Assembly (NCBI GenBank): GCA_046734815.1 | Contig: JBKPRZ010000179.1 | Coordinates: forward strand, 1,960 to 65,959 | Length of the DNA stretch: 64,000 bases | Direction of reading: 5' to 3' | Source: Myxococcota bacterium | Lineage (GTDB): Bacteria > Myxococcota_A > Polyangia > Fen-1088 | In this document: positions 40,147-59,930 of the stretch, one piece after another | Numbering within the stretch: the first letter of the stretch is position 1 | Layout: every line of letters begins with the position of its first letter | The notes under the pieces: generated by a model | Seen by the model: only the letters and a program-made list of their open reading frames with translations | The model's database searches: none | What the model was told of the DNA's origin: nothing | Made by a program: the position numbers and the translations under genes

Positions 40147-41544
<1,398 letters not shown>

Positions 41545-41760
41545 CCGATCGAGATCGCGACCTTGCTGCTGGTTCACACCCGCCGAACGCACCCTAATGA
41601 CCCGGCTACCAACGTGAGGGACAGTACAAGCCTGTTTTCAGTGTCGCATTTTTGGCCGGACAGGGTCAACTCCCGGCGGGGTGGCACGAATGGGGACGCT
41701 CTGCGCAGGTGGACGCCCCTGTGCTTGATTCCCCTGGCCAGCGTTGCATAGATAGACGGG

Positions 41761-43500
41761 ATGGTTGACCCGGTCTCCACGCTTCTCCTGGCGATCGAGA
41801 GGGAGACGGCGTTGCTGCCGGCGGGGAAGCTGTTTCCCGTCCGACCGAGCGCGCGGCTGCCGGAGCGGCTGGCGGAGGCGTGTGGGCGGCCCATCCCGGG
41901 TGGGGTATCGGCGTTCTTCTCGCGCTACGACGGAGGTGTATTCGCGCGCGAGGTGCGGCTGTTCTCGTTCGACGAGAGCCTGCGCCTCAAGCGCGACCCC
42001 AGGCGCTCGGGTGAGCTGAAGGGGCTGTGGCCCATCGTCGAGCGGCATGGCCGCCTGTTCGCCCTCGACGCGGAGTGCCTGGGTCCGGACGGCGAATGGC
42101 CGGTGGTGGAGCTGGCGGACCGCAGCGTGGATCGTGCGGGCAGCACCTTCCTGCGGTACCTGCATGCGCTGCTCGCGGACATGTCGCCGGATCCGTCACT
42201 CACCGACGCCGGCCGCGCCGAGGAGCGGTGCCGGCGCGATCCCGCGCTGGCCGAGCACTGGGTGGACTGGGTCGAGCTGCTGGACCGCGCCGGCCGGCTG
42301 GAGCAGGCCGACGAGGTGCTGTTCGAGGGCCTTCGTAGCTCCAACCCGCTGGGGCCGGCGCTGCTGATGGTGGCCGGGCTGCGGGCGGTGGACCGCGGCG
42401 ACCGGGATGCGCTCGAGCGGGCGATCCAGGACGCGCTCGAGCTGGAGCCGCTGACCGCGCGGGACGACGACGCCCGCCTGGACGCGGCGGCGGTGGCACT
42501 GGTGATCGCCCAGGAGCAGGGGGCCCGGGCGGCGCTGGCCAAGGCCCGCGAGCTGCTGGGCAGCGCCGCTTCGTCGACCGGGGCCTACTGGCGGGGCGAG
42601 ACCATCCGCGCGCTCGCCTCGTCACGGAAGGCGCGCGCCGAGCTGGCGCTGTCGGTGGTGCAGTCGCTGATCCCCGACGACCTCGACGTGACCCGGCTGC
42701 GCGCGCCCGCGGGGCTGTCGATCGATGGCTTGCTGGCGCTGGTGCGCGGGCGGGACGCGCTGGACCGGGGCGAGCTGGACGAGGCCTTGCCGGCGGCGCG
42801 CGCGGCGGTGGCCGATCTGCCCGAGCTGGGCCTGGCCCACGCGCTGCTGGCCGAGGTGCTGAACGCGCGTCGCGAGCGCGGCGGGCTGGAGGCGGCCCGG
42901 CGGGCGGCGGATCTGAACCCGGCGCTGATCGAGGCGTGGCGGGAGCTGGGCGACGGCTATCTGGAGCAGCGGCAAGCGGCCAAGGCCGAGGAGGCCTACC
43001 GCGAGCTGTGCCGGCGCGACCCGGGCAGCGGGCTGGGGCTGGCAAAGCTGGCCCAGGCCCAGCTGGAGCAGGGACGCACGCGCGAGGCGCTGGAGACCGT
43101 GGAGAACGCGGCCGAGCGCGGGGGCGACGTCTTCTTCGTCAACGCCGTCCGCGGCGACGTGCTGGCCGAGATGAGCCGGCACGTGGAGGCGGCGGAGGCG
43201 TACGACCAGGCGCTGGTGGTCGAACCCGAGGACCACTGGGCCCTGCACCAGGCCGCGCTCGAGCACAGCCGCGCCGGCAACAACGATCGGGCGATGGAGC
43301 TGTTCGAGCGCGCCATCGCCTTCGATCGCGAGGGCTGCCACCAGACCCTGGTGGACTACGCGGACCTGATGCGCCGGCAGGGCCGCATCGGCGATGCCGT
43401 CCGTCTGTACCGACGGGCGGTGGCGGCGGTGCCGAACGACCCCGAGTGGCGCCAGGTCCTGCGCGAGGCCGAGCGCGAGCTGCAGTCGGCGCCCAACTGA
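41761..43500 (+). CDS. SUKH (SMI1/KNR4)-like N-terminal domain fused to a long TPR array
   Basis: 579 aa. N-terminal LPERLAEACGRPIPGGVSAFFSRYDGGVF...LFSFDE resembles SUKH. The C-terminal two-thirds are TPR-like (AWRELGDGYLEQRQAAKAEEAYRELCRRDP etc.). Confidence 0.8.
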   Translation: MVDPVSTLLLAIERETALLPAGKLFPVRPSARLPERLAEACGRPIPGGVSAFFSRYDGGVFAREVRLFSFDESLRLKRDPRRSGELKGLWPIVERHGRLFALDAECLGPDGEWPVVELADRSVDRAGSTFLRYLHALLADMSPDPSLTDAGRAEERCRRDPALAEHWVDWVELLDRAGRLEQADEVLFEGLRSSNPLGPALLMVAGLRAVDRGDRDALERAIQDALELEPLTARDDDARLDAAAVALVIAQEQGARAALAKARELLGSAASSTGAYWRGETIRALASSRKARAELALSVVQSLIPDDLDVTRLRAPAGLSIDGLLALVRGRDALDRGELDEALPAARAAVADLPELGLAHALLAEVLNARRERGGLEAARRAADLNPALIEAWRELGDGYLEQRQAAKAEEAYRELCRRDPGSGLGLAKLAQAQLEQGRTREALETVENAAERGGDVFFVNAVRGDVLAEMSRHVEAAEAYDQALVVEPEDHWALHQAALEHSRAGNNDRAMELFERAIAFDREGCHQTLVDYADLMRRQGRIGDAVRLYRRAVAAVPNDPEWRQVLREAERELQSAPN

Positions 43501-43636
43501 CCGCCAGCTGACCCCGGCGTCCTCGTCGGGCTTGGGCACAACCAACCGCCGGCGTGATCGCGCTCCGCCGGAGCGTGCGCCGTGTTCGTCGGGCGTGCAG
43601 GTGCGGATCGTTGGAAGGGCAGGAGGAGCCAGCCCG

Positions 43637-44299
43637 ATGAGCACAGCCCCGATCTCTCATCGTGGTCGTTCCCGATCGCCGTCGGTGCTGATCGCCGCCG
43701 CGCTCGCCATCGTCCTGGTCGGCGCGCTGGCGGCGCTGCTGGCCTGGCCGGCGCCAGGAAAGCCGGCATCGATGAATGCCCCTGCGCCCGGAGGGGAAGG
43801 CGATCCGCAGCTGGCCGCCATGCAGGACGAGATCCGCATGTTGCGGCGCCGGCTCGATCTGCTGTCGCGGCAACCACCGGCCACGACGGCGGCGGCGAAA
43901 TCCGACCAGACCTCCGCGGGGCCGCCGCCGGTCCCGCTGACCCAGGAGGAGGTCTCGGCCCGTGACCGCCGGCGCTTCGAGGGGCTGGCCACGAAGCTGG
44001 CCGCCGAACCGGTGGACGCGCGCTGGGCGCCGGCGACCGAACGCCTGATCGCCGACACGCTCGGCAAGCCCGAATTCAAGGGGAGCAAGCTGCTGGCCAG
44101 CACCTGCCGCTCGACCCTGTGCCGGTTCGAGGTCGGTCACGATGACGAGAAGGCGCGCCGCCGGTTCAGCAGCAGCTTGCCGAACCGCTTGCCGTCCCTC
44201 CCTTCGGGGTCGATGCGAAACGCCGAGGGCAGCGACCCCCGGACCATCGTGTATGTCGCGCGGGAGGGCCACCGGATCCCGCGCGACGATCCGCAATAG
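43637..44299 (+). CDS. hypothetical N-terminally membrane-anchored protein
   Basis: ATG 43637 lies 10 nt after AGGAGG. TM helix VLIAAALAIVLVGALAALLAW. Short coiled segment (MQDEIRMLRRRLDLL). C-terminal domain of about 110 aa with CRSTLC. No family recognised. Confidence 0.65.
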   Translation: MSTAPISHRGRSRSPSVLIAAALAIVLVGALAALLAWPAPGKPASMNAPAPGGEGDPQLAAMQDEIRMLRRRLDLLSRQPPATTAAAKSDQTSAGPPPVPLTQEEVSARDRRRFEGLATKLAAEPVDARWAPATERLIADTLGKPEFKGSKLLASTCRSTLCRFEVGHDDEKARRRFSSSLPNRLPSLPSGSMRNAEGSDPRTIVYVAREGHRIPRDDPQ

Positions 44300-44332
44300 C
44301 CGGCGGCGGTTCACATCGACAAGGAGAAACAG

Positions 44333-44857
44333 ATGAGGCGAGCGAGGTTTGGTTTACTGGGAATCACCGCTGTGCTGGCCGTGCTGCTGTTCGGCGCGCG
44401 TGCCAGTGACGCCGGCGATCAGAAGATCTTCCCCGGATCGTTCTGCCAGCAGAGGGAATACGGCACCAACGCCCTGAACTTCAGCCTGGGCGGCGGGCAG
44501 CTGGCCATGGAAGCCCCGAACGACGGCAACGCGGGTGGCGACGTCTCCTGCCCCATCCTGCGCGACAACGAGGCGAACACCAACGGGTTCAAGTTCTTCG
44601 CCTGGGTGTACGACTTCTGGGGCGAGAACGGCGACCACGACCTGGAGAAGGTCATCTGCTCGGTCGGCATCCGCAAGTCCGACGGCAGCGGCCAGCTGGA
44701 CTGGGAGACCCGCTCCACGGGCGTCGAGCAGACCGGCATGGTCAAGCTGGACTGGGGCAGCTCGCTGGCCACCGGCGAGGCGTTCGCGGTCTATTTCATG
44801 GACTGCTTCGTCCCGACCTACTCGCACATCTCCAGCTACCGCATCGACGAGCCCTGA
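44333..44857 (+). CDS. hypothetical secreted protein with four cysteines
   Basis: AAGGAG Shine-Dalgarno 7 nt upstream. Signal peptide ...LLFGARASDAG. Mature protein of about 147 aa, rich in N/D/G/F/W. Native-looking GC3 codon usage. No family recognised. Confidence 0.75.
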   Translation: MRRARFGLLGITAVLAVLLFGARASDAGDQKIFPGSFCQQREYGTNALNFSLGGGQLAMEAPNDGNAGGDVSCPILRDNEANTNGFKFFAWVYDFWGENGDHDLEKVICSVGIRKSDGSGQLDWETRSTGVEQTGMVKLDWGSSLATGEAFAVYFMDCFVPTYSHISSYRIDEP

Positions 44858-44880
44858 GCGGCGCGGGCGCGGACGGCGGA

Positions 44881-45294
44881 TCAGGGCAAGCCGCGGGCCT
44901 GGGCGAGGAGGGCGTCGATCTCGGACTGCTTGAGCTCGCGCTCCTCGGCGTAGGCGATCCCCACCACCGCCCGGACCGCGCCCTGGTCGTCGTGGACCGG
45001 GAAGGCCACCGCCGCCTGGGCGTTGACTGCCTTGGCGCCCGGGCGGACGCGCCCGGTGTTGTCGTCCTTGATGTTGCAGGTGGAGATCGGCTGGTCCTGC
45101 TCGAGGGCCAGGCCGGCCATGCCCTTGCCCCGGGGCACGGTGCGGACGATCTCCTGCACCGGCGGGGGGATGTTGTAGGCGGCGGCCAGGCTGAGCAGGT
45201 CGCCCGACTCTCGCCGGTGCACACTGCCCGCGACCCCGCCGTTGTCGCGGATGAACTTCTCGAGCCAGACCTGGGTGGGGGAAGAGGCCGACAT
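44881..45294 (-). CDS. stand-alone GAF domain protein
   Basis: 137 aa. GKGMAGLALEQDQPI...AVAFPV...VVGIAY pattern typical of single-domain GAF proteins. Lies 7 nt downstream of the flavoprotein gene. Confidence 0.8.
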   Translation of the reverse strand: MSASSPTQVWLEKFIRDNGGVAGSVHRRESGDLLSLAAAYNIPPPVQEIVRTVPRGKGMAGLALEQDQPISTCNIKDDNTGRVRPGAKAVNAQAAVAFPVHDDQGAVRAVVGIAYAEERELKQSEIDALLAQARGLP

Positions 45295-45301
45295 GGCGGG
45301 A

Positions 45302-48300
45302 TTATACCGGCGCCCGCGCGACCGGCGAGGCCATCAATCGGCGGGTCCACAGGTCGCTCAGCTTCTCCTGCACCGTGTTTTGCCCCAGGCGTTCGGCCAG
45401 ATGCCCCCAGTCGACGCTGTCCTGGGCCTGGTCCTGGTTGAAGCAGGAGAAGACGAACACCTCCTTGCCGGTGGCGGGATCGATCTGACGCTGCAGGCAC
45501 TGCGCGCAGACCTCCTTCATCATGCATTGCATGGGCGAGTTGATGGAGGCGATGGCCACGTGCTCGCGCTGCAGATACGGCTTCAGGACGCCGTGGCGCG
45601 CGCGGGTCACCGCCGCCATCATGCGGTCGCTGCCGATGGCGATGATGCGGCGGCAGTCGGACAGCGGCACCACCTGCCGGCCCAGCTCGCCGCTGGCGTG
45701 GGCCAGCATGGCCTGCACGATGTTGCCCCGGAACACCCTGTCCTGCGGCCGGCGGGCCACGGGCAGGTCGCCGCTGTCCACGCTCCAGATGACCTCGTCG
45801 GTGGCCGCCTCGATCTCGTCGACCTTGTAGACGTCCTCTTTCTTGCGGTAACCGGCGAAATACAGGACCCGGCAACCGTTGTCGCGCAGGGCCCGGGCGA
45901 TGGAGAACAGCACGGCGTTGCCCAGACCGCCTCCGCACAGCGCCACCGCCTCGCCGCGCGGTATCTCCGTGGGGGCGCCGGTGGGCCCCATCAGCACCAC
46001 CGGCTCGCCCGGGCGCAGGCGCGCGCACAGCCGGGAGCTGCCACCCATCTCGAGAACGATGAGCGATACCAGGCCGCGCTCGACGTCGACCGAGGCGCCG
46101 GTGAGGGCCAGCCCTTCCATCTGCATGCGGGTGGAGCGGCCGTGCCCGTTCGGACCATCGTACACGGGCGAGAGGGTCTCGAAGTTCTGCAGCCGGAAGA
46201 ATTGCCCCGGCTGAAAGCGCCGGGCGGCCGCCGGCGCGGTCACCACCACCTCGACGATGGTCGGGGTCAGCCGGATCACCTCGTGCACGGTGGGGCGGAG
46301 ATCGCGATCCAGGCCAGCGGCGAAGCTCTCCCAGGCGGTGTCGCGGGCGGGCTGCTGCTGTGGGTCCAGGCCGGCGACGTGGGGGGCGAACAGCGCAGCC
46401 ACGTGCGGGTAGCCGTCCTTGGCCGAGGCCATCGCCTTGACCACCGACCCGGCGTAGACGGGGTGGTTGTCTCCGTAGAAGGTAATGAAGCGGCCGCCCT
46501 TCGCGTAGGAGGTGAAGAATGCGACCTCGCCCGGGGCCGCCGGCTCCAGGCGCACGCCCTCGGCGCCGCCGTTGGAGGGCCGCACCGCCCGGTAGGCCCG
46601 GAAGGCGCGCGCGCGGGCGTCGATGTCGAAGCTGCCCGGGTGCTCGCGCTCGTAGATGACGTTGGGTGAGGTGCCAGCGGCCACCAGCAGGGTGCGCGCG
46701 GGCAGGCGCACCCGCTCGCCGGTGGGGTGCACGGCGCCGGCCTGCTCGACCGCGCGCTCGAAGACCACCGCCTGCAAGTTTCCATACTGGTCGGGCTCAC
46801 ACTCGCGCGGGACCAGGTTCTCGATGAAGGAGACGCCCTCCTCGAGGAACTTGGCCACCTCCTCGTGGTTCAGCCGGTAGGCCGGCGACTCCTGCAGGCT
46901 GCGCCGGTAGACCAGCGAGACGCCGCCCCAGCTGGCCACCAGGCGGGCGAAGTCGGGAGCCTCGCCGGCGGCGGCGGCGCGCGCCCGTTCAGCGCGCACC
47001 TCCCGCCCGTGGGTCACGAACTCGCGCGCCACCTCACGCTCGGCCGGCGTGTACATGGCCCACAGCTGGTCCTCGCCGACGTCGGCCACGAGCGCCTCCC
47101 AGCGGGCCAGGAACTTCTCGACCTGCAGCGGGTAATACGCGGCCAGCTCGGTGGTGGTGTCGATGCCGGTCAGCCCGCCGCCCACCACCAGGGCTGGCAG
47201 CCGCATTTGCAGGTTGGCCAGGGTGTCGTCCTTGAAGCCGCCGGTCAGTTGCAGAGCCATCAGGAAGTCGGAGGCCTTGCGCACGCCGGGGATCAGGTTG
47301 TTCTTGACGTCGATGATGGTCGGCTTGCCCGCGCCGGCGGCGATGGCGATGTGGTCGAAGCCCAGCCGCCAGGCCTCGTCGGCGTCGAAGGTGCCGCCGA
47401 AGCGCACGCCGCCGTAGGCACGGAAGTTCCGCCGGCGGGCCAGCCCCAGGTAGATGGCCTGCAGGAAGTTCTTGTCCCAGCGAACGGTGATGCCGTATTC
47501 GGCCACCCCGCCGAACCCGGACAGCACGCGCCGGTCCAGCGGGACGGCCATCTCTTTCCAGTCGCGGAGCGGGCGGGGCGGCCAGATGTCGCCGCCCACC
47601 AGGTCCGCCGGCAGCGGCTCGAGCTTCAGCCCATCGACCGCCACCACGCCGAACCCCTCGTTGGCCAGGTGGTGGGACAACGTGTAGCCGGCTGGCCCCA
47701 GGCCGACCACCAGAACGTTCTTGCCGTTGTAGGGCAGGGCGTGCGGGCGGTTGCGGTTGAGCGGGTTCCAGCGGGTCAGCAGCGAGTAGATCTCGAATCC
47801 GTAGGGCAGGGCCAGGATGTCGGTCAGCACGCCGGTCTCGGCCTGCGGGATGTTCACCGGGTCCTGCTTCTGGAAGATGCAGGCCTTCATGCAGTCGTTG
47901 CAGATGCGATGGCCGGTGCCGGGCGCCATCGGGTTGTCGATTGTCACCAGGGCCAGCGCGCCCAGCGAGTCGCCTTCCTTGCGCAGGACGTGCATCTCGC
48001 TGATCCGCTCGCGCAGCGGGCAGCCGTTCAGCGGGATGCCCAGCGGGTTGCGCTTGGCGGTGCCGTCCTTCTCGCGCAGGCCGTGCGAGCAGGAGTCCTT
48101 GCGCCGCTCGTGGCAATAGAGGCAATAGTCCACCTCGCCCAGCACCTCGCGGGCGGTCATGCGCGGGTCGGTCAGACCGAATCCGGTGCGGCCGCGGCGG
48201 TGCTCGTCGTGAGCCACCATCAGCTCGGGCAGGTCGGCGCGGGGGCGGCGCAGCGGCACCAGGGTGCTGTGCTCCAGCTTGTGGGGCAGGCGGAAGGCCA

Positions 48301-49042
48301 CCCAGCTGGCCACGCGGTGGTGCGCCTCGGGCTCGTGCTGGTGCACGGCAGCCCAGCGCTCGAACAGGTCCAGCAGCGCCCGCACGAAGGTCAGCTCGGC
48401 AGCGGCAGCGCCGTCGATCAGCGCCGCCGGGGGATCGGGCAGGCGCGACACCCGGGCGGCCAGCTGCTGGGCGCCGGTCACGGCCTCGCCGGCAACCGGC
48501 GTGGCCAACAGCCCGGTCTCCAGGTCCAGGAGCGCGCACAGCGCCCGGGCGATGCGCAGTTCGCGGTCGGCGTCGCCCTCGGCGAGCGCCGGCAACAGCG
48601 TGTCCAGGCGCGCGTCCAGGGTCCGGCCCTCCGCCTCGCTCAGGCTGCCCGGGATGTACTTCTTGATCGCCCGGCGGCTCACGAACTCGCGCAGGCGCAG
48701 GACCGGGTGATCGGCGATGGCCGCCGCCCGCAGCGCCGCCAGCGGCTGTCCGACCGCGAACAGCTCGCCCACGAAGGCCGAAAGGTGGCGCGCAACCGCG
48801 ATCAGCAGATCGCCGTCGGCGGGAGGCACCAGCTCGGCCCCGCCCCGGTAGGCCTCGAAACGTTCGGACAGGGCAGGGTCGGCCGCCGCGAGCACGCGCC
48901 GGAAGTCGGCGTCCAGCGCGCGCAGCTTCTCGGGGTCGTGCAGGTCGGCGTAACGGTATCCGCGACCGAGAGGGATGTTGCGGGCGGGGTCGACCGGCGC
49001 GTTGCGCCCAACCGGAGCGAAAGCGTAAGGACCGAAGCTCAT
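45302..49042 (-). CDS. 1246-aa multidomain Fe-S flavoprotein: unknown N-domain + GltD/NfnB-like module + PyrK/NfnA-like ferredoxin-reductase module
   Basis: Cys clusters CLYCHERRKDSC, GCPLRE, HRICNDCMKAC. Dinucleotide folds VLVVGLGPAGYTLSHHLA and LVVGGGLTGIDTTTELA. C-terminal RFQPGQFFRL, LCGGGLGNAVLFSIARAL and the 2Fe-2S motif CMMKEVCAQC...SC. Confidence 0.9.
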   Translation of the reverse strand: MSFGPYAFAPVGRNAPVDPARNIPLGRGYRYADLHDPEKLRALDADFRRVLAAADPALSERFEAYRGGAELVPPADGDLLIAVARHLSAFVGELFAVGQPLAALRAAAIADHPVLRLREFVSRRAIKKYIPGSLSEAEGRTLDARLDTLLPALAEGDADRELRIARALCALLDLETGLLATPVAGEAVTGAQQLAARVSRLPDPPAALIDGAAAAELTFVRALLDLFERWAAVHQHEPEAHHRVASWVAFRLPHKLEHSTLVPLRRPRADLPELMVAHDEHRRGRTGFGLTDPRMTAREVLGEVDYCLYCHERRKDSCSHGLREKDGTAKRNPLGIPLNGCPLRERISEMHVLRKEGDSLGALALVTIDNPMAPGTGHRICNDCMKACIFQKQDPVNIPQAETGVLTDILALPYGFEIYSLLTRWNPLNRNRPHALPYNGKNVLVVGLGPAGYTLSHHLANEGFGVVAVDGLKLEPLPADLVGGDIWPPRPLRDWKEMAVPLDRRVLSGFGGVAEYGITVRWDKNFLQAIYLGLARRRNFRAYGGVRFGGTFDADEAWRLGFDHIAIAAGAGKPTIIDVKNNLIPGVRKASDFLMALQLTGGFKDDTLANLQMRLPALVVGGGLTGIDTTTELAAYYPLQVEKFLARWEALVADVGEDQLWAMYTPAEREVAREFVTHGREVRAERARAAAAGEAPDFARLVASWGGVSLVYRRSLQESPAYRLNHEEVAKFLEEGVSFIENLVPRECEPDQYGNLQAVVFERAVEQAGAVHPTGERVRLPARTLLVAAGTSPNVIYEREHPGSFDIDARARAFRAYRAVRPSNGGAEGVRLEPAAPGEVAFFTSYAKGGRFITFYGDNHPVYAGSVVKAMASAKDGYPHVAALFAPHVAGLDPQQQPARDTAWESFAAGLDRDLRPTVHEVIRLTPTIVEVVVTAPAAARRFQPGQFFRLQNFETLSPVYDGPNGHGRSTRMQMEGLALTGASVDVERGLVSLIVLEMGGSSRLCARLRPGEPVVLMGPTGAPTEIPRGEAVALCGGGLGNAVLFSIARALRDNGCRVLYFAGYRKKEDVYKVDEIEAATDEVIWSVDSGDLPVARRPQDRVFRGNIVQAMLAHASGELGRQVVPLSDCRRIIAIGSDRMMAAVTRARHGVLKPYLQREHVAIASINSPMQCMMKEVCAQCLQRQIDPATGKEVFVFSCFNQDQAQDSVDWGHLAERLGQNTVQEKLSDLWTRRLMASPVARAPV

Positions 49043-51405
49043 GGTGACGGTGCTTCTCTATACCCCGCTCGGCGCCGCTTTTCCCAGTCGACCCGTTCGA
49101 GAAAGTCCTGCGTCCGCAGGCGGTCCGAGAGGCTGTCGGCGTCCTTCTGCAGCCGCTCGAGCGCGGTCCGGCTGCGCTCGAGGTCGCCCCCCCGGAAGGC
49201 CGCCTCGGCCACCAGGGTGTGGCACTCCTTGACGAACACCGGCGGCAGCGGTTTGGCCCGCGGGCTGCCCCCCATCACCGGGCAGGCCGACTCCAGCAGA
49301 TCCAGCGACAGAGCGGCGTCACGGTAGGTCAGCTGGCGGCCCAGCAGATAGGGACCCAGGGCCTCCTCGGGGAAGGCCCGGGCGAAGCGGTCGATCAGGA
49401 AGACCACCAGCCCTGCGTCCGTACCCCGGATGGGGCTGTCCCCGAACAGCACGCGGCCCAGCGTCCTGCGCGACTCCTCGTCCTGCAGCGCCCGTAACCG
49501 TGCCAGCCCGTTCCTCTGCTCGGCATCGTCGGTGACGAAGGCCAGCCCGCGCTCGACCGCCGCCCGCGCCTGGTCGAAGCGACCGGCGTGGTAAAGCGCA
49601 TTGGCCGCAGTCTGAGCCGCGCGCGAGCGCAGGGGCAGGGTGTTCGACTCGTCCTTCTCCACCGCGCCCGTTTCCCGCAAGGTGGCATCGGTCAGGCCGG
49701 CCGCCGCCAGCGCGTCGGCGAGGTCCAGCCGGTAGGTCGGCTCCTCGGGATCGTCCCGGCAGACCGAACGCATCAGCTCGACCGCCTCGTCGGGGACGTT
49801 GTACAGGCGACCGCGCGCCTCCTGCACCCGGGCGGCCAGCTCCCGCGCGCACACCTTCTGGAAGATCGCTGGCCGGCGGAACCGCTCGCGGGCCCGTTCC
49901 TGCTCGCGGTTGTCCAGCGGCTGCTTCTCGATGAAGGCGCGCCACGCCGGCTCCAGCTGCTGCAGGGTCTCGCCGTACACCCCGACGAAGTCTCCGCCCG
50001 ATCGGTAGATCGCCCGGAGCTTGTCGGCCCCCCGGGTCGCCAGCAGAAAATGCGTGAAGGAACCGGCGATGGTGTACGCGCGAGGGCCCGACACGGTGGA
50101 GAACCCGGCCCCCACCACCTTGGCCAGCGGCGGAGCCAGGTGGGCGGCGATCATGGCCCGCGCCTCCTGGTGCACGGTCGAGCGCCCCCAGGGATCGCCG
50201 TAGTCCGCAGCCTCGGCGGTCCCCTCGATCAGCCCGCTGGCCAGCCGCGGAAAGGGCAGCCGCCAGGCCAGCGACACCCCGAACATCGGATCGCCGAACG
50301 CGCTGGCGAAGACGTGGGCCAGCTCGTGGCGCAGGCGGCGCGCGGGGAAACGCTCCGCCTGCACGAACACCTCCTGGGTCCACGGCTTCGCGTACAGCGT
50401 CCCGCCCGCGCCGACCAGGTTCTTCTTCACCTCGGCGCTGGGGAACAGGTACACGGTGATCGGCAGCCGCGGCTGGACGCCCAGGGTGCGGCTGAGCTGA
50501 TCGAAGCGGAACTCCAGATCGCGCAGCACCAGCTCGCGCTCGTCCGGGCTGCCGTCCGCGCTGGGGTCACTGTGCACCACGAAGTGCGCGGAGCGCGTCT
50601 CCCGGTTCAGCACCCGGACCAGCTGGCGGCGATCGACGTGGAATCCCAGCGGCCCACGTCGGGCGAACACCGCCAGCGAGGCCACCAGCAGCACCAGGGC
50701 GGCGGCCGCCGCCAGCAGGCGTGCGCGCCCGGGCTGCCGGAGGCGGCGGAGCGCGGCGGCCACGACGACGGCGGTCGTGATCCAGAGCAGGTTGGCCAGC
50801 CGGAAATCCAGCAGCCGTTCGGGCGGCCGCAGCGCCTCGTCGTAGATCGGCCCCGGGAAATAGCCACCGAAGGGATCGAACACCACCACCGGCGGATCGA
50901 AATACAGCCGCCCCAGCGCCCACACCACCGAAGCGACCGGGATCAACCAGGCGTAGAGACGACCCCGCCGCGCCGAGGCCAGGCCGGCCAGCACGCCCGC
51001 CGGCGCCGTGTACAGCGCGGTGGCGACCGGCAACAGCGCATAGAACGCGAAGCCCGCCTCCAGGTTGCAGTTGCGCACCCGCAGGGCGTTCAGCAGCGAC
51101 AGCAGCAATGGCAGGACCAGGATGGCCAGCGCTCCCAGCACGCCGGCCGCCAGCACCGGCGCCAGCGCCAGGCCCTCGCCGCGCCGGCGCGCCGCCGCCA
51201 CCGCCCCCTGGCCGATGTCCACCGCGGCCAGCGCCGTCACCAGGCCCAGGGCGAAGGAGAAGTCGAAGCCCAGCACATCGAACAGCGGCACGAAGCACAG
51301 CCCCAGCGCGACCAGCGCCAGGATCGCGGCCCAGACGAACACCCGCAGGCCCAGGCGGGTAGCGATCCAGCGGCGGGCGAGCCCGAGAGCAGACGGTCCG
51401 GGCAA
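49039..51405 (-). CDS. polytopic membrane protein with HEXXH motif and TPR-like C-terminal domain
   Basis: 788 aa with about 7 N-terminal TM helices. RRLRHELAHVFASAFG (HEXXH). Helical repeat C-terminus. Its stop overlaps the flavoprotein start (ATGA 49039-49042). Confidence 0.8.
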   Translation of the reverse strand: MPGPSALGLARRWIATRLGLRVFVWAAILALVALGLCFVPLFDVLGFDFSFALGLVTALAAVDIGQGAVAAARRRGEGLALAPVLAAGVLGALAILVLPLLLSLLNALRVRNCNLEAGFAFYALLPVATALYTAPAGVLAGLASARRGRLYAWLIPVASVVWALGRLYFDPPVVVFDPFGGYFPGPIYDEALRPPERLLDFRLANLLWITTAVVVAAALRRLRQPGRARLLAAAAALVLLVASLAVFARRGPLGFHVDRRQLVRVLNRETRSAHFVVHSDPSADGSPDERELVLRDLEFRFDQLSRTLGVQPRLPITVYLFPSAEVKKNLVGAGGTLYAKPWTQEVFVQAERFPARRLRHELAHVFASAFGDPMFGVSLAWRLPFPRLASGLIEGTAEAADYGDPWGRSTVHQEARAMIAAHLAPPLAKVVGAGFSTVSGPRAYTIAGSFTHFLLATRGADKLRAIYRSGGDFVGVYGETLQQLEPAWRAFIEKQPLDNREQERARERFRRPAIFQKVCARELAARVQEARGRLYNVPDEAVELMRSVCRDDPEEPTYRLDLADALAAAGLTDATLRETGAVEKDESNTLPLRSRAAQTAANALYHAGRFDQARAAVERGLAFVTDDAEQRNGLARLRALQDEESRRTLGRVLFGDSPIRGTDAGLVVFLIDRFARAFPEEALGPYLLGRQLTYRDAALSLDLLESACPVMGGSPRAKPLPPVFVKECHTLVAEAAFRGGDLERSRTALERLQKDADSLSDRLRTQDFLERVDWEKRRRAGYREAPSP

Positions 51406-51411
51406 CGGCCC

Positions 51412-53028
51412 CTACTTCCGCGGCTGGTAGATCTCGACCGCGTTCGAGGCCGAGTCGGCCGTGGCGCCGCCCAGGACGACCACCGACAGGTTCGGCAGCG
51501 AGGTGGCGGTGGCGCCGGCCCGGGGCACGGCCGGCATCTCGGCGACCATCGTCCAGCTCTTGGTGTCGTACACCTCGGCGGTGTCGACCAGCTGGTCGCC
51601 GGCGCCGTAACCGCCCGCCACCACCAGGTCGTCGTTGATCACGAACGCGCTGAACGACCGGCGCGGGGTCTTGAGCATGATCGGCCCGGGCTCGAAGCGG
51701 CGGCGCGCGGGCACGTAGAATAGCGAGTCGCCGCGCGGCAGCTTGTCGTCGCCCCGACCGCCCAGGATCAGGATCCTGGCCTCGCCGCTGGCGGTGACCG
51801 GCAAGGCGACGTGATCACGCCGCCCGGTCCCGGGGTGTCCGGACTGTCCGGGCGCGGCCGGCGGACCGCCCATGACGCCGTTGGCGCTGGTGTCGATGGA
51901 CAGCCAGTTGAGGGTCATCGGATCCAGCAACTCGGCCACCGGGCCGCCCTCGGGCGCCCCGCCGTAGATGAGGATGTTGCCCCAGGCCTCGCTGCTGGCG
52001 ACGGAGTTGGCCGTATGCCCCACGCGCGGGGCGGCCATCTTGAACGGCATCGCCATCCCCCCGGGAGGCGTCTTGGTGAGCACGTTGACCGGCATCTGCG
52101 GGCTGGTGTCCGGGTCCATGCTCACGATGGTGTCCAGCGCGTTGTTGCCCGCGTCGAGGCCGCCGAAGGCGAACACGGGCTTCGGCGTGGTTGCCAGCAC
52201 GGTTTGCCTGCGCGGGCACCCGTCGCCGCCCTGGGCCGGTGGGATGCTGGCCAGGAAGAAGCTGGAGAACAGCTCCCGCCCCACCGCGAAGACGTCCATC
52301 TGACTGCTGAGCTTCGGCTCTTCCATGATCGACGTCTGGGCCAGCCCGCCGAACATATACACCCGCTCGCCGCGGGTGATGGCCGCCGCCTCGGCGCGCA
52401 GGCCGCCGGTCATGGTGCCCAGCTCCTGCTGGGCGTGCAGGAGCGGGTTGTACACGAACAGGGCGTTCGACAGCAGCATCTGCTCGCCATTGCTGGCCGG
52501 CACCCAGGTGCGCCCGACCCCGAAGACCGGCACCGTCACCATGACGGACAGGTCACCCACCGCGGTGGACTCGGCCGGGATGGCCACGTGGTCCTTGGTC
52601 TTGAAGGCCAGGTCGCCCGCCCGCGCCAGGGTGCCCGGCTTCTGCACGAAGATCCGTATGCGCGGGGACAGGTGCAGCACCTCCACCTGGGGTGTCTGGC
52701 CGAAGGCCACCAGGTTGCCGGCGGCGTCTTCGGCGCGGATCGCGAAGATTGTGGTGCGGGTGGCGTTGGGATCCAGGTCGGGCGCATCCAGCGAGAAGGG
52801 CGCGCCGGAGTTGAGGTTGGTGCTGGCCACGACCTGCCCGGAGACCAGCAGCTTGGCCACCGTGGCGCCGCTGAACGCGTCCTTGGGCGCGACGATCTCG
52901 ACCGCGTAGGTGTCCTTCAAGGTCTCGCCGCAGGCGCCCGCCCAGCCGAGTGCCAGCAGCCCGGGCAGCAACCGCCCCGCGAAGAAGGGCCCGCCGCGCG
53001 GCCGCTGGCCCAAGGCTCTATTGAACAT
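51412..53028 (-). CDS. Kelch-repeat beta-propeller protein, probable lipoprotein
   Basis: 538 aa. Signal/lipobox-like LLALGWAGAC. Six blade signatures: VYMFGG, VFAFGG, ILIYGG, ILILGG, LVVAGG, VVVLGG. Confidence 0.8.
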   Translation of the reverse strand: MFNRALGQRPRGGPFFAGRLLPGLLALGWAGACGETLKDTYAVEIVAPKDAFSGATVAKLLVSGQVVASTNLNSGAPFSLDAPDLDPNATRTTIFAIRAEDAAGNLVAFGQTPQVEVLHLSPRIRIFVQKPGTLARAGDLAFKTKDHVAIPAESTAVGDLSVMVTVPVFGVGRTWVPASNGEQMLLSNALFVYNPLLHAQQELGTMTGGLRAEAAAITRGERVYMFGGLAQTSIMEEPKLSSQMDVFAVGRELFSSFFLASIPPAQGGDGCPRRQTVLATTPKPVFAFGGLDAGNNALDTIVSMDPDTSPQMPVNVLTKTPPGGMAMPFKMAAPRVGHTANSVASSEAWGNILIYGGAPEGGPVAELLDPMTLNWLSIDTSANGVMGGPPAAPGQSGHPGTGRRDHVALPVTASGEARILILGGRGDDKLPRGDSLFYVPARRRFEPGPIMLKTPRRSFSAFVINDDLVVAGGYGAGDQLVDTAEVYDTKSWTMVAEMPAVPRAGATATSLPNLSVVVLGGATADSASNAVEIYQPRK

Positions 53029-53079
53029 GCCCGCAGCCTAATACCGCCGGGCCTCCGACGCCACGGTGGCGTCGATGGC

Positions 53080-54554
<1,475 letters not shown>

Positions 54555-54559
54555 GTCCG

Positions 54560-55336
54560 TCAGTGCCCCTTGGGCAGCTTGAAGAGGGTGGGGGCCATCT
54601 TCTGATCGAACTTGACCTCGGCGATGCGCGCGTCGACGGACATCGGCCCGGCGGTGGTCTCCTCACGGAACGGCAGCTTCACGCCCTCGACGTCGCGCCA
54701 GTCGGACAGGTGAGCGCTGTAGGGCACCTCGCCCTGCGGGGTGGCCTGCTTGCCCTGCTGGTAGACGCGCAGGTGGGTGGTGGCGTCGAAACAGCTGATG
54801 GCCGGCTGCCCCACCGCCGGGGTCAGCTGCAGGCACTCGAGCGCGACGTTCTTGGGCGCGCCATCGGGGCGGGGCACCACCTCGACCTTCTTGTACAGCT
54901 TCGCGAGCTTGAGGTCCGCGTTCCAGGTGCCCTCCAGCCGGGCCTGTTCCTCCTCGGGGCCCTTGAGGATGCGCAGGCCGTTGATGGGGTCCTCCGCCCA
55001 GCGCACCTTGCCGGTGGATCCCTGCTTGACCACGCCGATCCCGGGCAAGGTGGTCACCGACAGCAGCTGCCCACTCGAGTTGGACCAGCGCTCCTCGGTG
55101 CCGTTGACCCCCATGCCCTTCACGGCGATCTCGCGCTTGAGGTAGGCGTTCTTGTGCCGGCCCAGCCCCTGCTCGCCGCCGATCGCCCGGGCGTAGTCGT
55201 CCAGGATGGCCTTGGCGGCGCGCGGGCCGGGGTCGGCCGGCGGCGGCGCCCCGGCATCGGCGGCGTGCGCGGGTGGCGGCGTCCAGGCGAGCGCCAGCAA
55301 CATCGACAAGGTGAGAAGGTGGGTGGTGGGTTTCAT
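54560..55336 (-). CDS. secreted protein of unknown function (possibly LolA-like fold)
   Basis: 258 aa. Signal peptide ...[12 protein letters not shown]. Beta-rich sequence. ATGA overlap with the upstream S41 peptidase gene. The family assignment is only a guess. Confidence 0.7.
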
Positions 55337-56742
55337 CTGGGCCTCGATGCTCGGGCGGCGACGAGGGCGGCGTCAAGCACCGGGTCGCGCCCGGTCAGCA
55401 GCGCCGAGCGGGTCTCGACCACCCGGCGGTCGGGCTGCACCCCGCGGCCCTCCAGCAACACGCCCTTGGGCGTGCGGAAGTCGGCCACCACGTACTGGAT
55501 CACCGCTCCGCCCGGCAGGGCCTCCACCTGCGAGGGCAGGACCGCGCCCAGGGAAGTGTCGCCCACCACCACCGCCCGGCCCGCCTCCTTCAACCCGGCC
55601 GCGAAGATCTCGGCGGTCGAGGCGGTCCCCTCGTCGGTGATGATCACCAGCGCACCGGTGAACGGCTTGACCCCCAGGGGCGGCGTGGCGGTGAACACCT
55701 GATTGAATTCCCGGAACTGCAGGGTGCCCAGGGTGATGGCCCGGTCGGTGAGGCGGGCGGCGATCGGGATGGCCACCGCGCCCTGACCGCCGGGGTTGCC
55801 GCGCAGGTCGATCACGACCGCCCTGGTCTTGCGCGTCCGGAAGCCGTCGATCGCGCTCTGCACCCGCGGCAGCACCCCTTCGCTGAGGAACAGGTTGAAG
55901 GCGAGCACGCCGATGTCCCCCACCTGCGAGACCCGCACCTCCGGATACAGCGGCGGCAACAGGCCCAGCTTCACCGGTTTCTCGGCGGGAACCTCCCGCT
56001 CCAGCACCACCTGACCCGGCCGATCCTGGGCGTCGAGGTATTTCACCGTCACGCGGGTGCCGGCCGGTCCGGTCAGCCGGCGCGCCGCCGCCACCCGGGC
56101 ATAGAAGCGCTCTTCCACCGGACGCAGGGGCCGCCCGCCGCGCGGCTTGGTGGCCACCTCCCAGCCGCCGATGTGGGTCACGATGAACCCGGGTCGCAGC
56201 CCGGCCCGCTCGGCCGGCGACTCCGGGCGGACCCAGCTGATGGTCGGGCGCCCCTCGATGATCCGCAGGACGAAGCCGGGATCGGCCTCGCCACCCGCCG
56301 ACGGAGGCGCGTCGGGGTCGAAGGCCGGGCTGGGGGGCGCGCCCGGGCCCGCCACCTCGAGGTGCGACTGCCCCAGCTCGCCCAGCATCTGGTTCATCAA
56401 CCGGTAGAAGGTCGCCGCGTCGGGCGCCGCCAGCGCCAGCGGCTCGTAGCGGGCGCGCACGGCGTTCCAGTCCAGCCCGCCCAGCGTCTTGTCGAAATGC
56501 TTGTCTCGCACCAGGGTCCAGGCGCCCTCGAAGATGGCCTGCCGGGTCTGCCGCTCGGCCGAGCGCGCGTCGTTGCCCGGGGCGGCCGGGGCCGACTGGG
56601 GCAGGGGCGGCGGAACGACACCCGCCGCCGCCGCGGGATCGGGAGGCGGCGGCGCGGCGGTTACGGGCGCAGCCGCGCGGCTGGCACAGGCCAGCGCGAC
56701 GGCGGTGCAGAGCAAGAGGGGGAGCCCAGGCGGTCGAAGCAT
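55333..56742 (-). CDS. S41 family peptidase (C-terminal processing/tail-specific type) with signal peptide
   Basis: Start at MLRPPGLPLLL. PDZ-like segment. VVIDLRGNPGGQG and IITDEGTASTAEIFAAGLK catalytic-core motifs. Confidence 0.9.
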   Translation of the reverse strand: MLRPPGLPLLLCTAVALACASRAAAPVTAAPPPPDPAAAAGVVPPPLPQSAPAAPGNDARSAERQTRQAIFEGAWTLVRDKHFDKTLGGLDWNAVRARYEPLALAAPDAATFYRLMNQMLGELGQSHLEVAGPGAPPSPAFDPDAPPSAGGEADPGFVLRIIEGRPTISWVRPESPAERAGLRPGFIVTHIGGWEVATKPRGGRPLRPVEERFYARVAAARRLTGPAGTRVTVKYLDAQDRPGQVVLEREVPAEKPVKLGLLPPLYPEVRVSQVGDIGVLAFNLFLSEGVLPRVQSAIDGFRTRKTRAVVIDLRGNPGGQGAVAIPIAARLTDRAITLGTLQFREFNQVFTATPPLGVKPFTGALVIITDEGTASTAEIFAAGLKEAGRAVVVGDTSLGAVLPSQVEALPGGAVIQYVVADFRTPKGVLLEGRGVQPDRRVVETRSALLTGRDPVLDAALVAARASRPR

Positions 56743-56752
56743 CGCTACAAGC

Positions 56753-58045: not shown

Positions 58046-58524
58046 TACCTCGTCCGCCCCGGCAGCGTCTGCCAGATCCGGAACGGCTCGTCCGGACCGG
58101 GCACGGCGATCCGCCGCAGCGGCAGCCGCCGCGCCTCCACCGGCCGGGCCAGCTCTTCATAGATGAAGGCATCGTCGAATCCCGCCTCCGCCGCCTCGGC
58201 GCGCGTGGCCGCGAAGTACACCGCCCGCGGCCGCGCCCAGTACAGCGCCCCCAGGCACATCGGGCACGGTTCGCAGCTGGCGTACACGTCGCAGCCGTCC
58301 AGCTGGAACTTGCCGCGGGCCGCGCAGGCGGCGCGGATCGCCTGCACCTCGGCGTGGGCGGTGGGGTCGTTGCGCCCGACCACCTCGTTGTGACAGGCGG
58401 CCAGCACCCGGTCCCCCTCCACCACCACCGCCCCGAAGGGCCCGCCGTGTCCGCCGCGCGCGCCCGCGACGCCGACGTCCATCGCCTGGCGCAGGAACCG
58501 CACGTGCTCGGCGTCGTCGCTCAC
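58042..58524 (-). CDS. nucleoside/guanine deaminase (CDA superfamily)
   Basis: 160 aa with zinc motifs TAHAEVQAI and SCEPCPMCLGAL. Confidence 0.9.
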   Translation of the reverse strand: MSDDAEHVRFLRQAMDVGVAGARGGHGGPFGAVVVEGDRVLAACHNEVVGRNDPTAHAEVQAIRAACAARGKFQLDGCDVYASCEPCPMCLGALYWARPRAVYFAATRAEAAEAGFDDAFIYEELARPVEARRLPLRRIAVPGPDEPFRIWQTLPGRTRY

Positions 58525-59264
58525 CGGATCTCCTCCCCGCCCCGGGTGCGCTCGCCGAAGATCGCCGTCCCCACCCGCACCAGGGTCGCGCCCTCGGCGA
58601 CCGCCACCTCGAGGTCGTGGCTCATACCCATCGACAGCTCGCGCAGGTCGACGCCCGACCGCGCCGCCCCCGCCTCCCGGTCGCGCAGCTGGCGCAGGGC
58701 CTGGAAGTGCACGCGGCCGGCTTCCGGGTCCTCGGTCAGCGGCGGTATCAGCATCAACCCCACGCAGCGCAGGTGCGGAAAGTCGCCGAACCGGTCGAGC
58801 AGGGCGCCGAGCGCCGCCGGTGCCACCCCATGTTTCTGCGCCTCACCCGCCACGTTGACCTGCACCAGGCATTCTTGCACAGCCGGGGCCCCGGCGATTC
58901 GCCGTTCGGTCTCGGCCAGCAGCGCGGGATCATCGATCGTATGGATGAGGGCCACCTTGCCGGCCAGGTACTTGACCTTGTTGCTCTGGATGGGTCCGAT
59001 GTAATGCCAGCGCGGCCCGCGGTCGGGATCGCCCGTCCGGGCCGCCGCCACCGCCGTCCGCTTGTCCCGCAGCTCCTGGGCATAGTTCTCACCGAAGTCG
59101 ACCTGTCCGGCATCCATCGCCGCCAGCACGTCCTCGGCAGGCTTGGTCTTGCTGACCGCCACCAGCCGCACCGATCCCGCCGCGCGCCCCGCCGCCCGCT
59201 CGGCCCGGGCCAGGCGCTCGCGCACACGCCCCAGGTTCTCGGCGATCTCCTGCGCGCGGGTCAT
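58521..59264 (-). CDS. yggS: YggS-family pyridoxal-phosphate homeostasis protein
   Basis: Start at MTRAQEI (ATGA overlap with maf). [29 protein letters not shown]. Confidence 0.9.
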
Positions 59265-59890: not shown

Positions 59891-59930
59891 GCCGCGATCT
59901 CTAGCCGCTTTTGGCCCGCCCGTCGAACCC

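Follow-up and report, generated by a model that had tools for sequence, protein, structure and literature searches.

Four genes within a longer same-strand array

The 64,000-nt stretch of DNA analyzed here (the window), apparently from an uncultured Polyangia-type myxobacterium, carries four adjacent genes for a Kelch protein, a membrane protein, an Fe-S flavoprotein, and a GAF protein. They lie at the distal end of a long array (~59441 to 44881) that looks polycistronic.

44881-45294, minus: GAF gene (137 aa)
45302-49042, minus: flavoprotein gene (1246 aa)
49039-49042, minus: ATGA overlap, in which the membrane-protein stop codon lies on the flavoprotein start codon (read from the sequence)
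49039-51405, minus: membrane-protein gene (788 aa, TTG start)
50314-50328, minus: HELAH, the HExxH zinc-binding motif of the membrane protein (aa 360-364, from the translation)
51412-53028, minus: Kelch gene (538 aa)
53080-59441, minus: upstream array, 51 nt from the Kelch gene, with genes for an Ala_racemase_N-like protein, a deaminase, a Fer2_4/FAD protein, an S41 peptidase, and a secreted 258-aa unknown
53080-54267, minus: DAO flavoprotein gene
54264-54554, minus: gene for a BFD-like [2Fe-2S] protein

The tight packing of four minus-strand ORFs described in the first-pass annotation was borne out at these coordinates. The Kelch/membrane-protein junction is a 6-nt gap and the flavoprotein/GAF junction a 7-nt gap, both read directly from the sequence; between them lies the ATGA overlap (-4 nt). 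All four ORFs have a strong coding signature (GC3 0.91-0.96) and many homologs, and NCBI proteins P0121 and P0241 are 100% identical, with ends unchanged. Judged from the spacing, co-transcription of the four genes is plausible. The whole array, however, is ~14.5 kb long; unrelated genes in it overlap by 4 nt, and at least 11 genes with assorted functions are compactly spaced. Gene calls in the contig P0002, from a close relative, give array spacings of -4, +2, +10, -4, +5, +41, +53, +8, -4, and +35 nt. Contigs L169 and L170 share the S41-unknown-BFD-DAO synteny beside the membrane-protein gene, as do 16-21 of 80 metagenome loci. Tight spacing is not peculiar to the four genes, which are part of a longer tightly spaced array and not a self-contained unit.

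Features of the encoded proteins

The Kelch protein consists of an N-terminal domain of ~155 aa and six Kelch blades. It matched Pfam Kelch_1/4/6, and six blades are assigned because an alignment of five orthologs contains six invariant GG pairs with 49-67 residues between them. Cys33, which follows the signal sequence, is invariant in the same alignment. The protein is probably a periplasmic lipoprotein, in agreement with the first-pass annotation, which had proposed about six blades and a lipid anchor.

The membrane protein has three parts:

aa 21-248: seven TM helices
aa ~255-520: gluzincin-like domain, predicted periplasmic
aa ~520-779: TPR-like tail

The AlphaFold model (pLDDT 85.6) contains seven TM helices, a beta/alpha domain with the HExxH helix, and the TPR-like tail. 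The sequence RHELAHV lies at 50311-50331, and HExxH is invariant in 24 homologs, as are R359, H360, E361, H364, E394, G395, E398, and D401. The model has helices at 358-370 and 390-400, the first of them spanning the motif; candidate third-ligand glutamates E394/E398 are on the next long helix (GLIEGTAEAAD). Model and invariant motif confirm the helices, HEXXH motif, and tail of the first-pass annotation. By the positive-inside rule, the peptidase and TPR domains are predicted to be periplasmic. The earlier idea of an envelope module made of a propeller and a metallopeptidase-like membrane protein is supported. The membrane-protein family is large: a search at E<=1e-30 gave 1503 or more clusters at 50% identity.

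Pfam matched only TPR_19 in this protein, and sequence searches of Pfam and PDB gave no match to the peptidase domain. In contrast, Foldseek with a domain-only model matched gluzincins with a probability of 1.0 and TMq of 0.5-0.61; nearest by fold were M9 collagenases (ColG, ColH, Vibrio/Grimontia collagenases), followed by M1 (LTA4H), M30, and M61 peptidases. As in gluzincins, a beta-sheet comes before the HExxH helix, and the helix after it bears invariant glutamates. Sequence identity is only 13-18%, however, and seven N-terminal TM helices, with invariant periplasmic loops of their own (NC, DPFGGYFPGPIYDE), anchor the domain; a TPR tail stands where M9 collagenases have collagen-binding domains. 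BepA of E. coli (PDB 6ait), an M48 metalloprotease of the periplasm, also carries a TPR domain. It shares with the predicted membrane protein the general plan of a zinc protease in the periplasm joined to TPRs that bind substrates or partners, but it is soluble and belongs to another peptidase family. Among fold hits for the full-length model it came only 36th (E 1.4e-2, TMq 0.15). The parallel would be functional only.

The flavoprotein combines four regions:

aa 1 to ~290: RP005_N-type N-terminal domain
aa 300-390: Cys-rich Fe-S region
aa ~440-870: GltD/NfnB-like FAD/NAD(P)H module
aa ~915-1246: PyrK/NfnA-like module with C-terminal [2Fe-2S] cysteines

The two redox modules had been proposed before and are upheld by NCBIfam, PDB, and conserved cysteines. 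NCBIfam matches were PRK06567 (the best, 600 bits) and two entries for fused NfnAB-like proteins, PRK12778 and PRK12779; in PDB the GltD/NfnB-like part matched 5jca_L and the PyrK/NfnA-like part 5jca_S (E 5e-15 to 5e-17). C307, C310, C318, C341, C381, C384, and C388 are invariant, and C1173, C1179, C1182, and C1200 nearly so. NfnAB (NfnI) is an NADH-dependent reduced ferredoxin:NADP+ oxidoreductase (PDB 5jca, 4ylf). Both of its subunit types are recognizable in the flavoprotein, and the expected Fe-S cysteine sets are conserved. Unlike NfnAB, the flavoprotein joins both parts in one chain, B before A; it also has an additional ~290-aa domain at its N terminus (RP005_N), and its flavin module contains large insertions. 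It shares little sequence identity with solved Nfn structures, and an NfnAB-like activity or electron bifurcation is putative. PRK06567 bears the title 'putative bifunctional glutamate synthase subunit beta/2-polyprenylphenol hydroxylase' and is a Rickettsiales hallmark gene. This RP005 family has been described as a GltD-UbiB chimera present in nearly all Rickettsiales (PMC3641634). Close homologs of the flavoprotein carry PF27156 RP005_N plus Pyr_redox_2, but its 600 bits fall below the equivalog cut-off of 1072, and it exceeds the model, which has 1031 positions, by ~200 aa.

The GAF protein matched Pfam GAF_2 (35 bits; cut-off 28.6), which bears out its earlier assignment as a 137-aa GAF domain protein; an NCBIfam search gave no match. 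In an alignment of 25 homologs, GKGMAG and TCN motifs and one cysteine (Cys73) are invariant. It resembles fRMsr/MsrC (free methionine-(R)-sulfoxide reductase) in being a stand-alone GAF_2 protein of similar size, but differs in having a single invariant Cys. No fRMsr structure was found in PDB with either the sequence or the 25-sequence profile, even at E<=10. Many homologs carry the JGI label 'L-methionine (R)-S-oxide reductase'.

Gene neighborhoods in relatives and in other bacteria

Comparison contigs were metagenomic throughout. Close relatives supplied three contigs with the same four-gene block (P0002, L081, and L082), and only these and the window have the flavoprotein gene in the block. 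L082 keeps it despite flanks unlike those of the window. The ATGA overlap is retained in three of the four flavoprotein-bearing contigs, being present also in P0002 and L081; in L082 there is a 35-nt gap. Three other contigs (L169, L170, and P0138) have the order S41-unknown-BFD-DAO-Kelch-membrane protein-GAF, after which come TPR579, a convergent gene, and NtrC. They are collinear with the window except that the flavoprotein gene is absent. Their membrane-protein/GAF junctions are -4, 14, and 51 nt, the 4-nt overlap being that of the P0138 contig. The membrane proteins of sister lineages P0142 and P0138 are 73% identical, and one lineage has the flavoprotein while the other does not. In P0133 and P0136 the absence of the flavoprotein is presumptive only.

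The Kelch gene lies upstream of the membrane-protein gene in L081, L082, L169, L170, and the P0138 contig and, by weak matches, in L134, L157, and L088. In these last three the pair is followed by a convergent TPR gene, with no GAF gene, and the adjacency is kept at 47-50% membrane-protein identity (L134, L157). Kelch identity is 39-59% where the membrane protein shows 58-74%. Two extra ORFs between the GAF and TPR genes of the window are missing from syntenic contigs. In an NJ tree, membrane proteins of the Kelch/GAF type form one clade nested among those of the PilZ type, with the flavoprotein patchy inside the clade. This topology, if right, implies either two gains at one junction or one gain and several losses.

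We also scanned neighborhoods reciprocally. No membrane-protein, Kelch, or GAF gene was found near the flavoprotein in 80 flavoprotein-seeded genome loci (Myxococcota, Acidobacteriota, Planctomycetota, Nitrospirota, Ignavibacteriota, Gammaproteobacteria, Gemmatimonadota; at least 1.5 kb upstream available in 69), a range far beyond Rickettsiales and Proteobacteria. Each neighboring gene family was present in at most 14 of 84 flavoprotein loci, and the flavoproteins nearest to those of the block adjoin a divergent 2Fe-2S ferredoxin gene and RsgA. Conversely, 80 membrane-protein-seeded metagenome loci contained neither a flavoprotein ortholog nor a GAF gene (at least 1.5 kb downstream available in 50). 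One such locus, L098, has a weak, unrelated 26% match to the flavoprotein. A divergent PilZ gene lies directly upstream of the membrane-protein gene in 64 of 83 loci. The expected co-occurrence of the four families thus largely fails.

Origin and possible roles of the block

The first-pass annotation took all four proteins for one undescribed redox-linked envelope system, in which the flavoprotein and a GAF sensor act with the membrane and Kelch proteins. Tight spacing with the ATGA overlap would fit, as would recurrence of the block in three relatives, one with different flanks, but upstream genes that are clearly unrelated overlap just as tightly. Collinear contigs lacking the flavoprotein and the empty reciprocal scans (80 + 80 loci) leave the proposal unsupported; the flavoprotein spans many phyla without a detectable partner gene adjoining it, and it is cytoplasmic while the peptidase domain is predicted periplasmic. 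We consider a single system very improbable and, by the presence/absence pattern, largely refuted. A functional pair of flavoprotein and GAF, in which the latter would sense a ligand or regulate the redox enzyme and the envelope genes would be mere neighbors, seems even more remote: the two genes adjoin in all four flavoprotein-bearing contigs, with a 4-nt overlap in L082, but at least three contigs without the flavoprotein have GAF directly after the membrane-protein gene, a window-type GAF gene is missing from all 72 flavoprotein loci for which 0.5 kb or more of downstream sequence was available, and the nearest flavoproteins outside the block have the ferredoxin gene and RsgA instead.

The four genes could also be functionally unrelated, chance members of a compact array typical of a high-GC genome. 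The mixed functions of its at least 11 genes agree with this, as do the poor conservation of Kelch, the relatives without GAF, and the many membrane-protein loci, the majority, that have PilZ upstream and no Kelch gene. Yet Kelch adjacency survives considerable divergence, the P0138 contig has the membrane-protein/GAF overlap, and a gene for a small cytoplasmic ligand-binding domain (PilZ or GAF) nearly always adjoins the membrane-protein gene, which looks non-random. We judge a complete lack of relation unlikely.

The reading we prefer, at a probability of roughly 0.7, is that the flavoprotein gene is dispensable and was recently inserted into an older Kelch/membrane zinc-peptidase/GAF group, and that its product has an unrelated cytoplasmic job. 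Because relatives point to such an insertion, we regard the arrangement as ordinary lineage-specific gene order and not a new redox-linked envelope system. The older, clade-specific core would comprise the probable periplasmic Kelch lipoprotein and the 7-TM gluzincin-type zinc-peptidase protein with its TPR tail, which the small cytoplasmic GAF protein would have joined in a subclade. The flavoprotein, a stand-alone gene in other bacteria, would have been relocated into the membrane-protein/GAF junction, in a stepwise accretion at the 3' end of the membrane-protein gene of GAF, then the flavoprotein, then the two window ORFs. It is probably co-transcribed with its neighbors but is not an obligatory partner.

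For the membrane protein we infer protease activity, topology, and interaction with Kelch, GAF, or PilZ proteins. It may be an envelope protease or processing factor, loosely BepA-like, whose TPR tail, possibly together with the Kelch lipoprotein, would bind substrates; a small cytoplasmic ligand-binding protein, PilZ in most lineages and GAF here, would modulate it. The flavoprotein would carry out unrelated cytoplasmic electron transfer. Its co-expression with the block may confer a lineage-specific selective advantage, and two gains at the same junction, if true, would hint at function. Both the 7TM-gluzincin-TPR protein and the RP005-like flavoprotein represent uncharacterized families that are still of interest.

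Four minus-strand genes within a longer array

The first-pass annotation had described four tightly joined minus-strand ORFs, and this was borne out by the ORF list, the translations and the junction sequences. Its descriptions of the four proteins also proved correct in Pfam, NCBIfam and PDB searches, alignments and models. Each ORF below was taken from the ORF list and its translation.

44881-45294, minus strand: GAF protein, 137 aa
45302-49042, minus strand: flavoprotein, 1246 aa
49039-51405, minus strand: membrane protein, 788 aa, TTG start
51412-53028, minus strand: Kelch protein, 538 aa

Read from the sequence, the junctions are a gap of 6 nt, overlapping stop and start codons (ATGA, 49039-49042) and a gap of 7 nt. 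GC3 is 0.91-0.96 in all four ORFs, a bias at the third codon position as expected of real genes; the sequence is ~70% GC. Proteins of equal length and 100% identity (P0121, P0241) were found at NCBI, from a 67,016-bp contig, and the named homologues are labeled Polyangia or Myxococcales.

That the four genes form a separate unit was not borne out. Same-strand genes continue 51 nt upstream of the Kelch gene, as follows.

53080-54267, minus strand: DAO-type flavoprotein, nearest upstream of the Kelch gene
54264-54554, minus strand: BFD-like [2Fe-2S] protein (SO_alpha_A3/Fer2_BFD), 96 aa, next upstream, in another frame
54560-55336, minus strand: secreted 258-aa protein of no known family, upstream of the BFD-like gene
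upstream of the 258-aa gene, minus strand: S41 peptidase, array member
56753-58045, minus strand: Fer2_4/FAD protein, upstream of the S41 peptidase gene
farthest upstream of those listed, minus strand: a deaminase, then an Ala_racemase_N-like protein, array members

Most junctions in this upstream array are 4-nt overlaps or spacers of less than 12 nt. In a relative with 88% identity (the P0002 contig), the gene-call spacings over the whole array are -4, +2, +10, -4, +5, +41, +53, +8, -4 and +35 nt. Since the close spacing extends along the whole array, tight packing is a property of the region and not a mark of the four genes. A consensus scan of 43400-61000 for promoters and terminators, of a kind uninformative for this GC-rich organism, detected no promoter, and terminator-like sites were fewer than in shuffled sequence.

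The longest ORF at 53080-54666 (minus strand, 528 aa) was rejected as a single gene; it consists of the DAO gene and a spurious upstream extension. With its probable start at 54267, the DAO gene overlaps the stop of the 96-aa BFD-like gene by 4 nt. Together, the Fer2_4/FAD, BFD-like and DAO genes (53080-58045, minus strand) resemble a three-component flavoenzyme of the HcnABC, opine-oxidase or D-hydroxyproline-dehydrogenase type, its putative genes being split by those of the S41 peptidase and the secreted 258-aa protein. Two comparison loci, L169 and L170, keep the order S41-unknown-BFD-DAO beside the membrane-protein gene, as do 16-21 of 80 metagenome loci.

On the other side of the array, two plus-strand ORFs (43637-44299 and 44333-44857) lie between the GAF gene and a convergent gene for a 579-aa TPR protein (TPR579). 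Neither has a Pfam match. The 220-aa product of one carries a hydrophobic anchor at its N-terminus; the 174-aa product of the other has a signal peptide and several cysteines. Neither ORF occurs in the syntenic P0002 contig, L169 or L170; there, ~25-100 nt separate the GAF gene from the TPR gene. The convergent TPR579 gene and the gene of an NtrC-type sigma-54 activator (40147-43500) adjoin the block also in L169, L170 and the contig of the homologous membrane protein P0138, and the TPR579 protein is further conserved in loci L088, L134 and L157. These two proteins could be regulators of the array.

Predicted properties of the four proteins

The Kelch protein exceeds the Pfam cut-offs for Kelch_1, Kelch_4 and Kelch_6. 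An alignment of five orthologues contains six invariant GG motifs (227, 289, 356, 423, 472 and 520), and their regular spacing indicates six blades, a number of repeats sufficient to close a beta-propeller. The five orthologues also share an invariant Cys33 where the signal sequence ends. The residues at -3 to -1 in the window protein are A-G-A, and because position -3 of this lipobox is atypical we regard the protein as no more than a probable lipoprotein.

For the membrane protein, Pfam recognized a TPR_19 repeat alone; no HExxH domain was matched even at E<=10, and a PDB profile search returned TPR matches only and no peptidase. An AlphaFold model built with 24 homologues (pLDDT 85.6, pTM 0.81) has seven TM helices in its N-terminal part (21-248), then a beta/alpha domain, in which helix 358-370 bears HExxH and is followed by helix 390-400, and finally a helical repeat tail. 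Across 24 homologues with 54-80% identity, R359, H360, E361, H364, E394, G395, E398 and D401 never vary, nor do two membrane-domain loops (N112-C113 and D177-E190). When residues 255-520 were modeled alone (pLDDT 85.7) and compared with the PDB by Foldseek, all top matches were M9, M1, M30 or M61 peptidases; M9 collagenases were the best fold matches (probability 1.0, TMq 0.5-0.61), followed by M1, M30 and M61. The model thus points to a thermolysin-like catalytic fold of the gluzincin type, clan MA(E), and to a putative protease, in which E394 and E398 on helix 390-400 are candidates for the third zinc ligand, a Glu. The protein has a predicted gluzincin fold but is a member of no described sequence family.

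By manual reading, the N-terminus and alternate loops hold 4, 3, 3 and 5 arginines versus 0, 2 and 3 on the other side. This distribution suggests a cytoplasmic N-terminus and a periplasmic peptidase/TPR part. A word-indexed search retrieved 563 homologues, and a profile search of 1.84 billion representatives gave at least 1503 clusters (50% identity) at E<=1e-30, most of them full-length proteins of ~750-820 aa. The family, 7TM-gluzincin-TPR hereafter, is large and apparently restricted to myxobacteria, and neither its membrane part nor its catalytic part has a model in Pfam.

The flavoprotein is best matched among NCBIfam models by PRK06567, at 600.5 bits; the curated cut-off is 1072, and the window protein does not reach PRK06567/RP005 equivalog status. 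Lower-scoring NCBIfam matches were the fused PyrK-GltD models PRK12778, PRK12779 and PRK12775, as well as gltA and PRK12770, and Pfam identified Pyr_redox_2. In PDB sequence searches the protein matched Pyrococcus NfnI, in both its subunits, as well as the Nfn homologue of Thermotoga. It contains a GltD/NfnB-like module with the FAD/NAD(P)H-binding domain (5jca_L) and a PyrK/NfnA-like FAD/NAD module (5jca_S, 4ylf_A and 1ep1_B). Seven cysteines between residues 307 and 388 (Fe-S cysteines) are invariant, and the C-terminal C1173, C1179, C1182 and C1200 ([2Fe-2S]) nearly so. We predict a fused NfnB-NfnA-like enzyme. NfnAB consists of two subunits, or of an A-B fusion without further domains, whereas the window protein is a single chain in the order B, then A, and, unlike NfnAB, carries an extra N-terminal domain of ~290 aa. 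This architecture is shared with the uncharacterized RP005/PRK06567 family; for homologues with 62-89% full-length identity, precomputed RP005_N (PF27156) hits are on record. The family is noted only as a Rickettsiales hallmark, a GltD-UbiB chimera (PMC3641634); literature searches for "PRK06567" returned just this mention, and for "RP005" unrelated papers only. At least 7982 of 8000 scored candidates fell at E<=1e-10, making this a large family.

The 137-aa protein scores above the Pfam threshold for GAF_2. Many of its homologues are named "L-methionine (R)-S-oxide reductase" by JGI. Neither its sequence nor its profile found any fRMsr chain in the PDB at E<=10, and the alignment has a single invariant Cys. 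The reductase label is unsupported for both reasons, and we rejected identity with free Met-(R)-sulfoxide reductase (fRMsr/MsrC).

Distribution of the four genes

All comparison sequences were metagenomic contigs. An alignment of 26 flavoproteins was searched against one genome per GTDB species and found at least 596 loci. The best 80 are 51-64% identical (64% being the closest among the matches listed) and come from Myxococcota (including Myxococcus, Corallococcus, Polyangium, Sorangium and Labilithrix) and also from Acidobacteriota, Planctomycetota, Nitrospirota, Chlorobiota/Ignavibacteriota, methanotrophic Gammaproteobacteria, Gemmatimonadota and Binatia. Tblastn detected the membrane, Kelch or GAF protein at none of these 80 loci, with thresholds of 1e-4 to 1e-5 at which very divergent small proteins could be missed; the flanks covered at least 1.5 kb on the upstream side for 69 loci, and at least 0.5 kb on the downstream side for 72. 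There was no universal neighbor: upon clustering, the commonest family of flanking ORFs was present at no more than 14 of 84 loci.

The metagenome scan with the membrane protein yielded 80 loci at 47-60% identity, 50 of them with at least 1.5 kb downstream. A flavoprotein orthologue was found at none, the lone weak match (L098, 26% over 270 aa) being a different flavoprotein; the GAF protein was also absent from all 80, and a weak Kelch homologue lay upstream at two. The S41 peptidase, the 258-aa unknown and DAO were nearby at 16-21. Thus, the proposed co-occurrence of the four families across genomes failed with either seed (0/80 each), and all four genes were found together only in the window, the P0002 contig and two further loci, L081 and L082.

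The commonest neighbor of the membrane-protein gene (64 of 83 loci) is a ~149-aa PilZ domain gene, immediately upstream and divergent, for example:

L085, 9564-9986: PilZ domain gene, divergent to the membrane-protein gene
L119, 7547-8035: PilZ domain gene, divergent to the membrane-protein gene

Farther upstream, 29 loci of the L085-L167 set have a Polysacc_synt (flippase-like) gene. This context suggests a link of the membrane protein with c-di-GMP, and perhaps with polysaccharide export. No relevant paper turned up in a literature search on PilZ together with metallopeptidase and Myxococcota.

Closer relatives show how the flavoprotein gene is placed. Where the flavoprotein is 88% or 81% identical, the whole region is syntenic; in L082 (70%) the Kelch-membrane protein-flavoprotein-GAF block is kept and the flanks differ; in L168, L083 and L084 (68%, 66% and 65%) the block is absent. 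The flavoprotein gene in L168 (8517-13763) and L083 (8867-14421) is found beside a divergent gene for a ~100-aa 2Fe-2S ferredoxin and a convergent RsgA GTPase gene. This ferredoxin, the sole hint of a ferredoxin-dependent transhydrogenase or electron-bifurcating activity of the flavoprotein, is a candidate redox partner. A universal ferredoxin partner was rejected, the Fer2/RsgA neighbors being present at two loci only, and no PilZ, Fer2 or RsgA gene was found elsewhere in the window.

Three contigs (L169, L170 and that of P0138) encode membrane proteins 58-64% identical to that of the window and are collinear on both sides, with the shared order S41, unknown, BFD, DAO, Kelch, membrane protein, GAF, convergent TPR579 and NtrC-type regulator. 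The flavoprotein is absent from all three blocks, and the membrane protein and GAF genes are joined by a 4-nt overlap or separated by 14 or 51 nt. P0138, without the flavoprotein, and P0142 of L082, with it, are 73% identical, closer to each other than either is to the window protein. Matching two hit lists points to further contigs with the membrane protein and GAF and without the flavoprotein; among them are contigs of 3,067 and 4,440 bp, too short for the 3.7-kb gene. In the distant L088, L134 and L157, which have Kelch upstream, the membrane-protein gene is followed by the convergent TPR gene, with no GAF.

In NJ trees, whose topologies are rough, the membrane proteins of Kelch/GAF type group in a single clade within the PilZ-type proteins, and the presence of the flavoprotein is patchy inside it. 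In-block flavoproteins also form one clade, in which the homologue P0007 is basal, and the ferredoxin/RsgA-context clade is its sister.

Origin and possible function

The simplest reading of these data is stepwise accretion downstream, where the membrane-protein gene ends: the GAF gene would have been added first, the flavoprotein gene next and, in the window, the two plus-strand ORFs last. The flavoprotein gene would be old and vertically inherited, standing alone elsewhere, and would have moved into the membrane-protein/GAF junction in one lineage, being missing there in close relatives. We conclude that the four-gene combination is a lineage-specific arrangement and no new kind of system.

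The first-pass annotation had proposed an undescribed redox-linked envelope system made of all four proteins which, if true, would be a new kind of trans-envelope machine. From the gene arrangement, the flavoprotein is probably co-transcribed with its neighbors, and the ATGA overlap would permit its translation to be coupled to that of the membrane protein. In genomes that are compact and high in GC, 4-nt overlaps say little about functional coupling. There is no sign that the flavoprotein cooperates with the envelope proteins, for whose catalytic and TPR parts a periplasmic location is predicted. Comparative genomics gives no support to such a system, the flavoprotein being missing from collinear contigs: conserved co-occurrence was absent outside a narrow clade and incomplete within it.

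The best candidate for a functional unit is the gluzincin-TPR membrane protein together with the probable Kelch lipoprotein; its third member may be a small ligand-binding protein of the cytoplasm, which is GAF here and PilZ in most lineages. By analogy with BepA-like periplasmic protease-TPR proteins, we propose with modest confidence a role in the processing or quality control of envelope proteins. A more elaborate possibility makes the 7TM-gluzincin-TPR family a second-messenger-gated transmembrane protease. PilZ (in most lineages) or GAF (in the Kelch clade) may dock on the 7-TM domain and control periplasmic proteolysis of envelope proteins, substrates may be presented by the Kelch protein and the TPR tail, and in the window lineage co-translation with the Nfn-like flavoprotein may have been selected, tying this control to redox state. 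That all these parts hold jointly strikes us as distinctly improbable.

The value of the region lies in two uncharacterized protein families rather than in an operon. The RP005-like fused NfnB-NfnA flavoprotein is spread over many phyla and has never been characterized, and the 2Fe-2S ferredoxin gene beside its nearest out-of-block relatives provides a testable partner candidate. The 7TM-gluzincin-TPR family, with its recurring PilZ or GAF neighbor, is a target for work on envelope remodeling or c-di-GMP signaling in Myxococcota.
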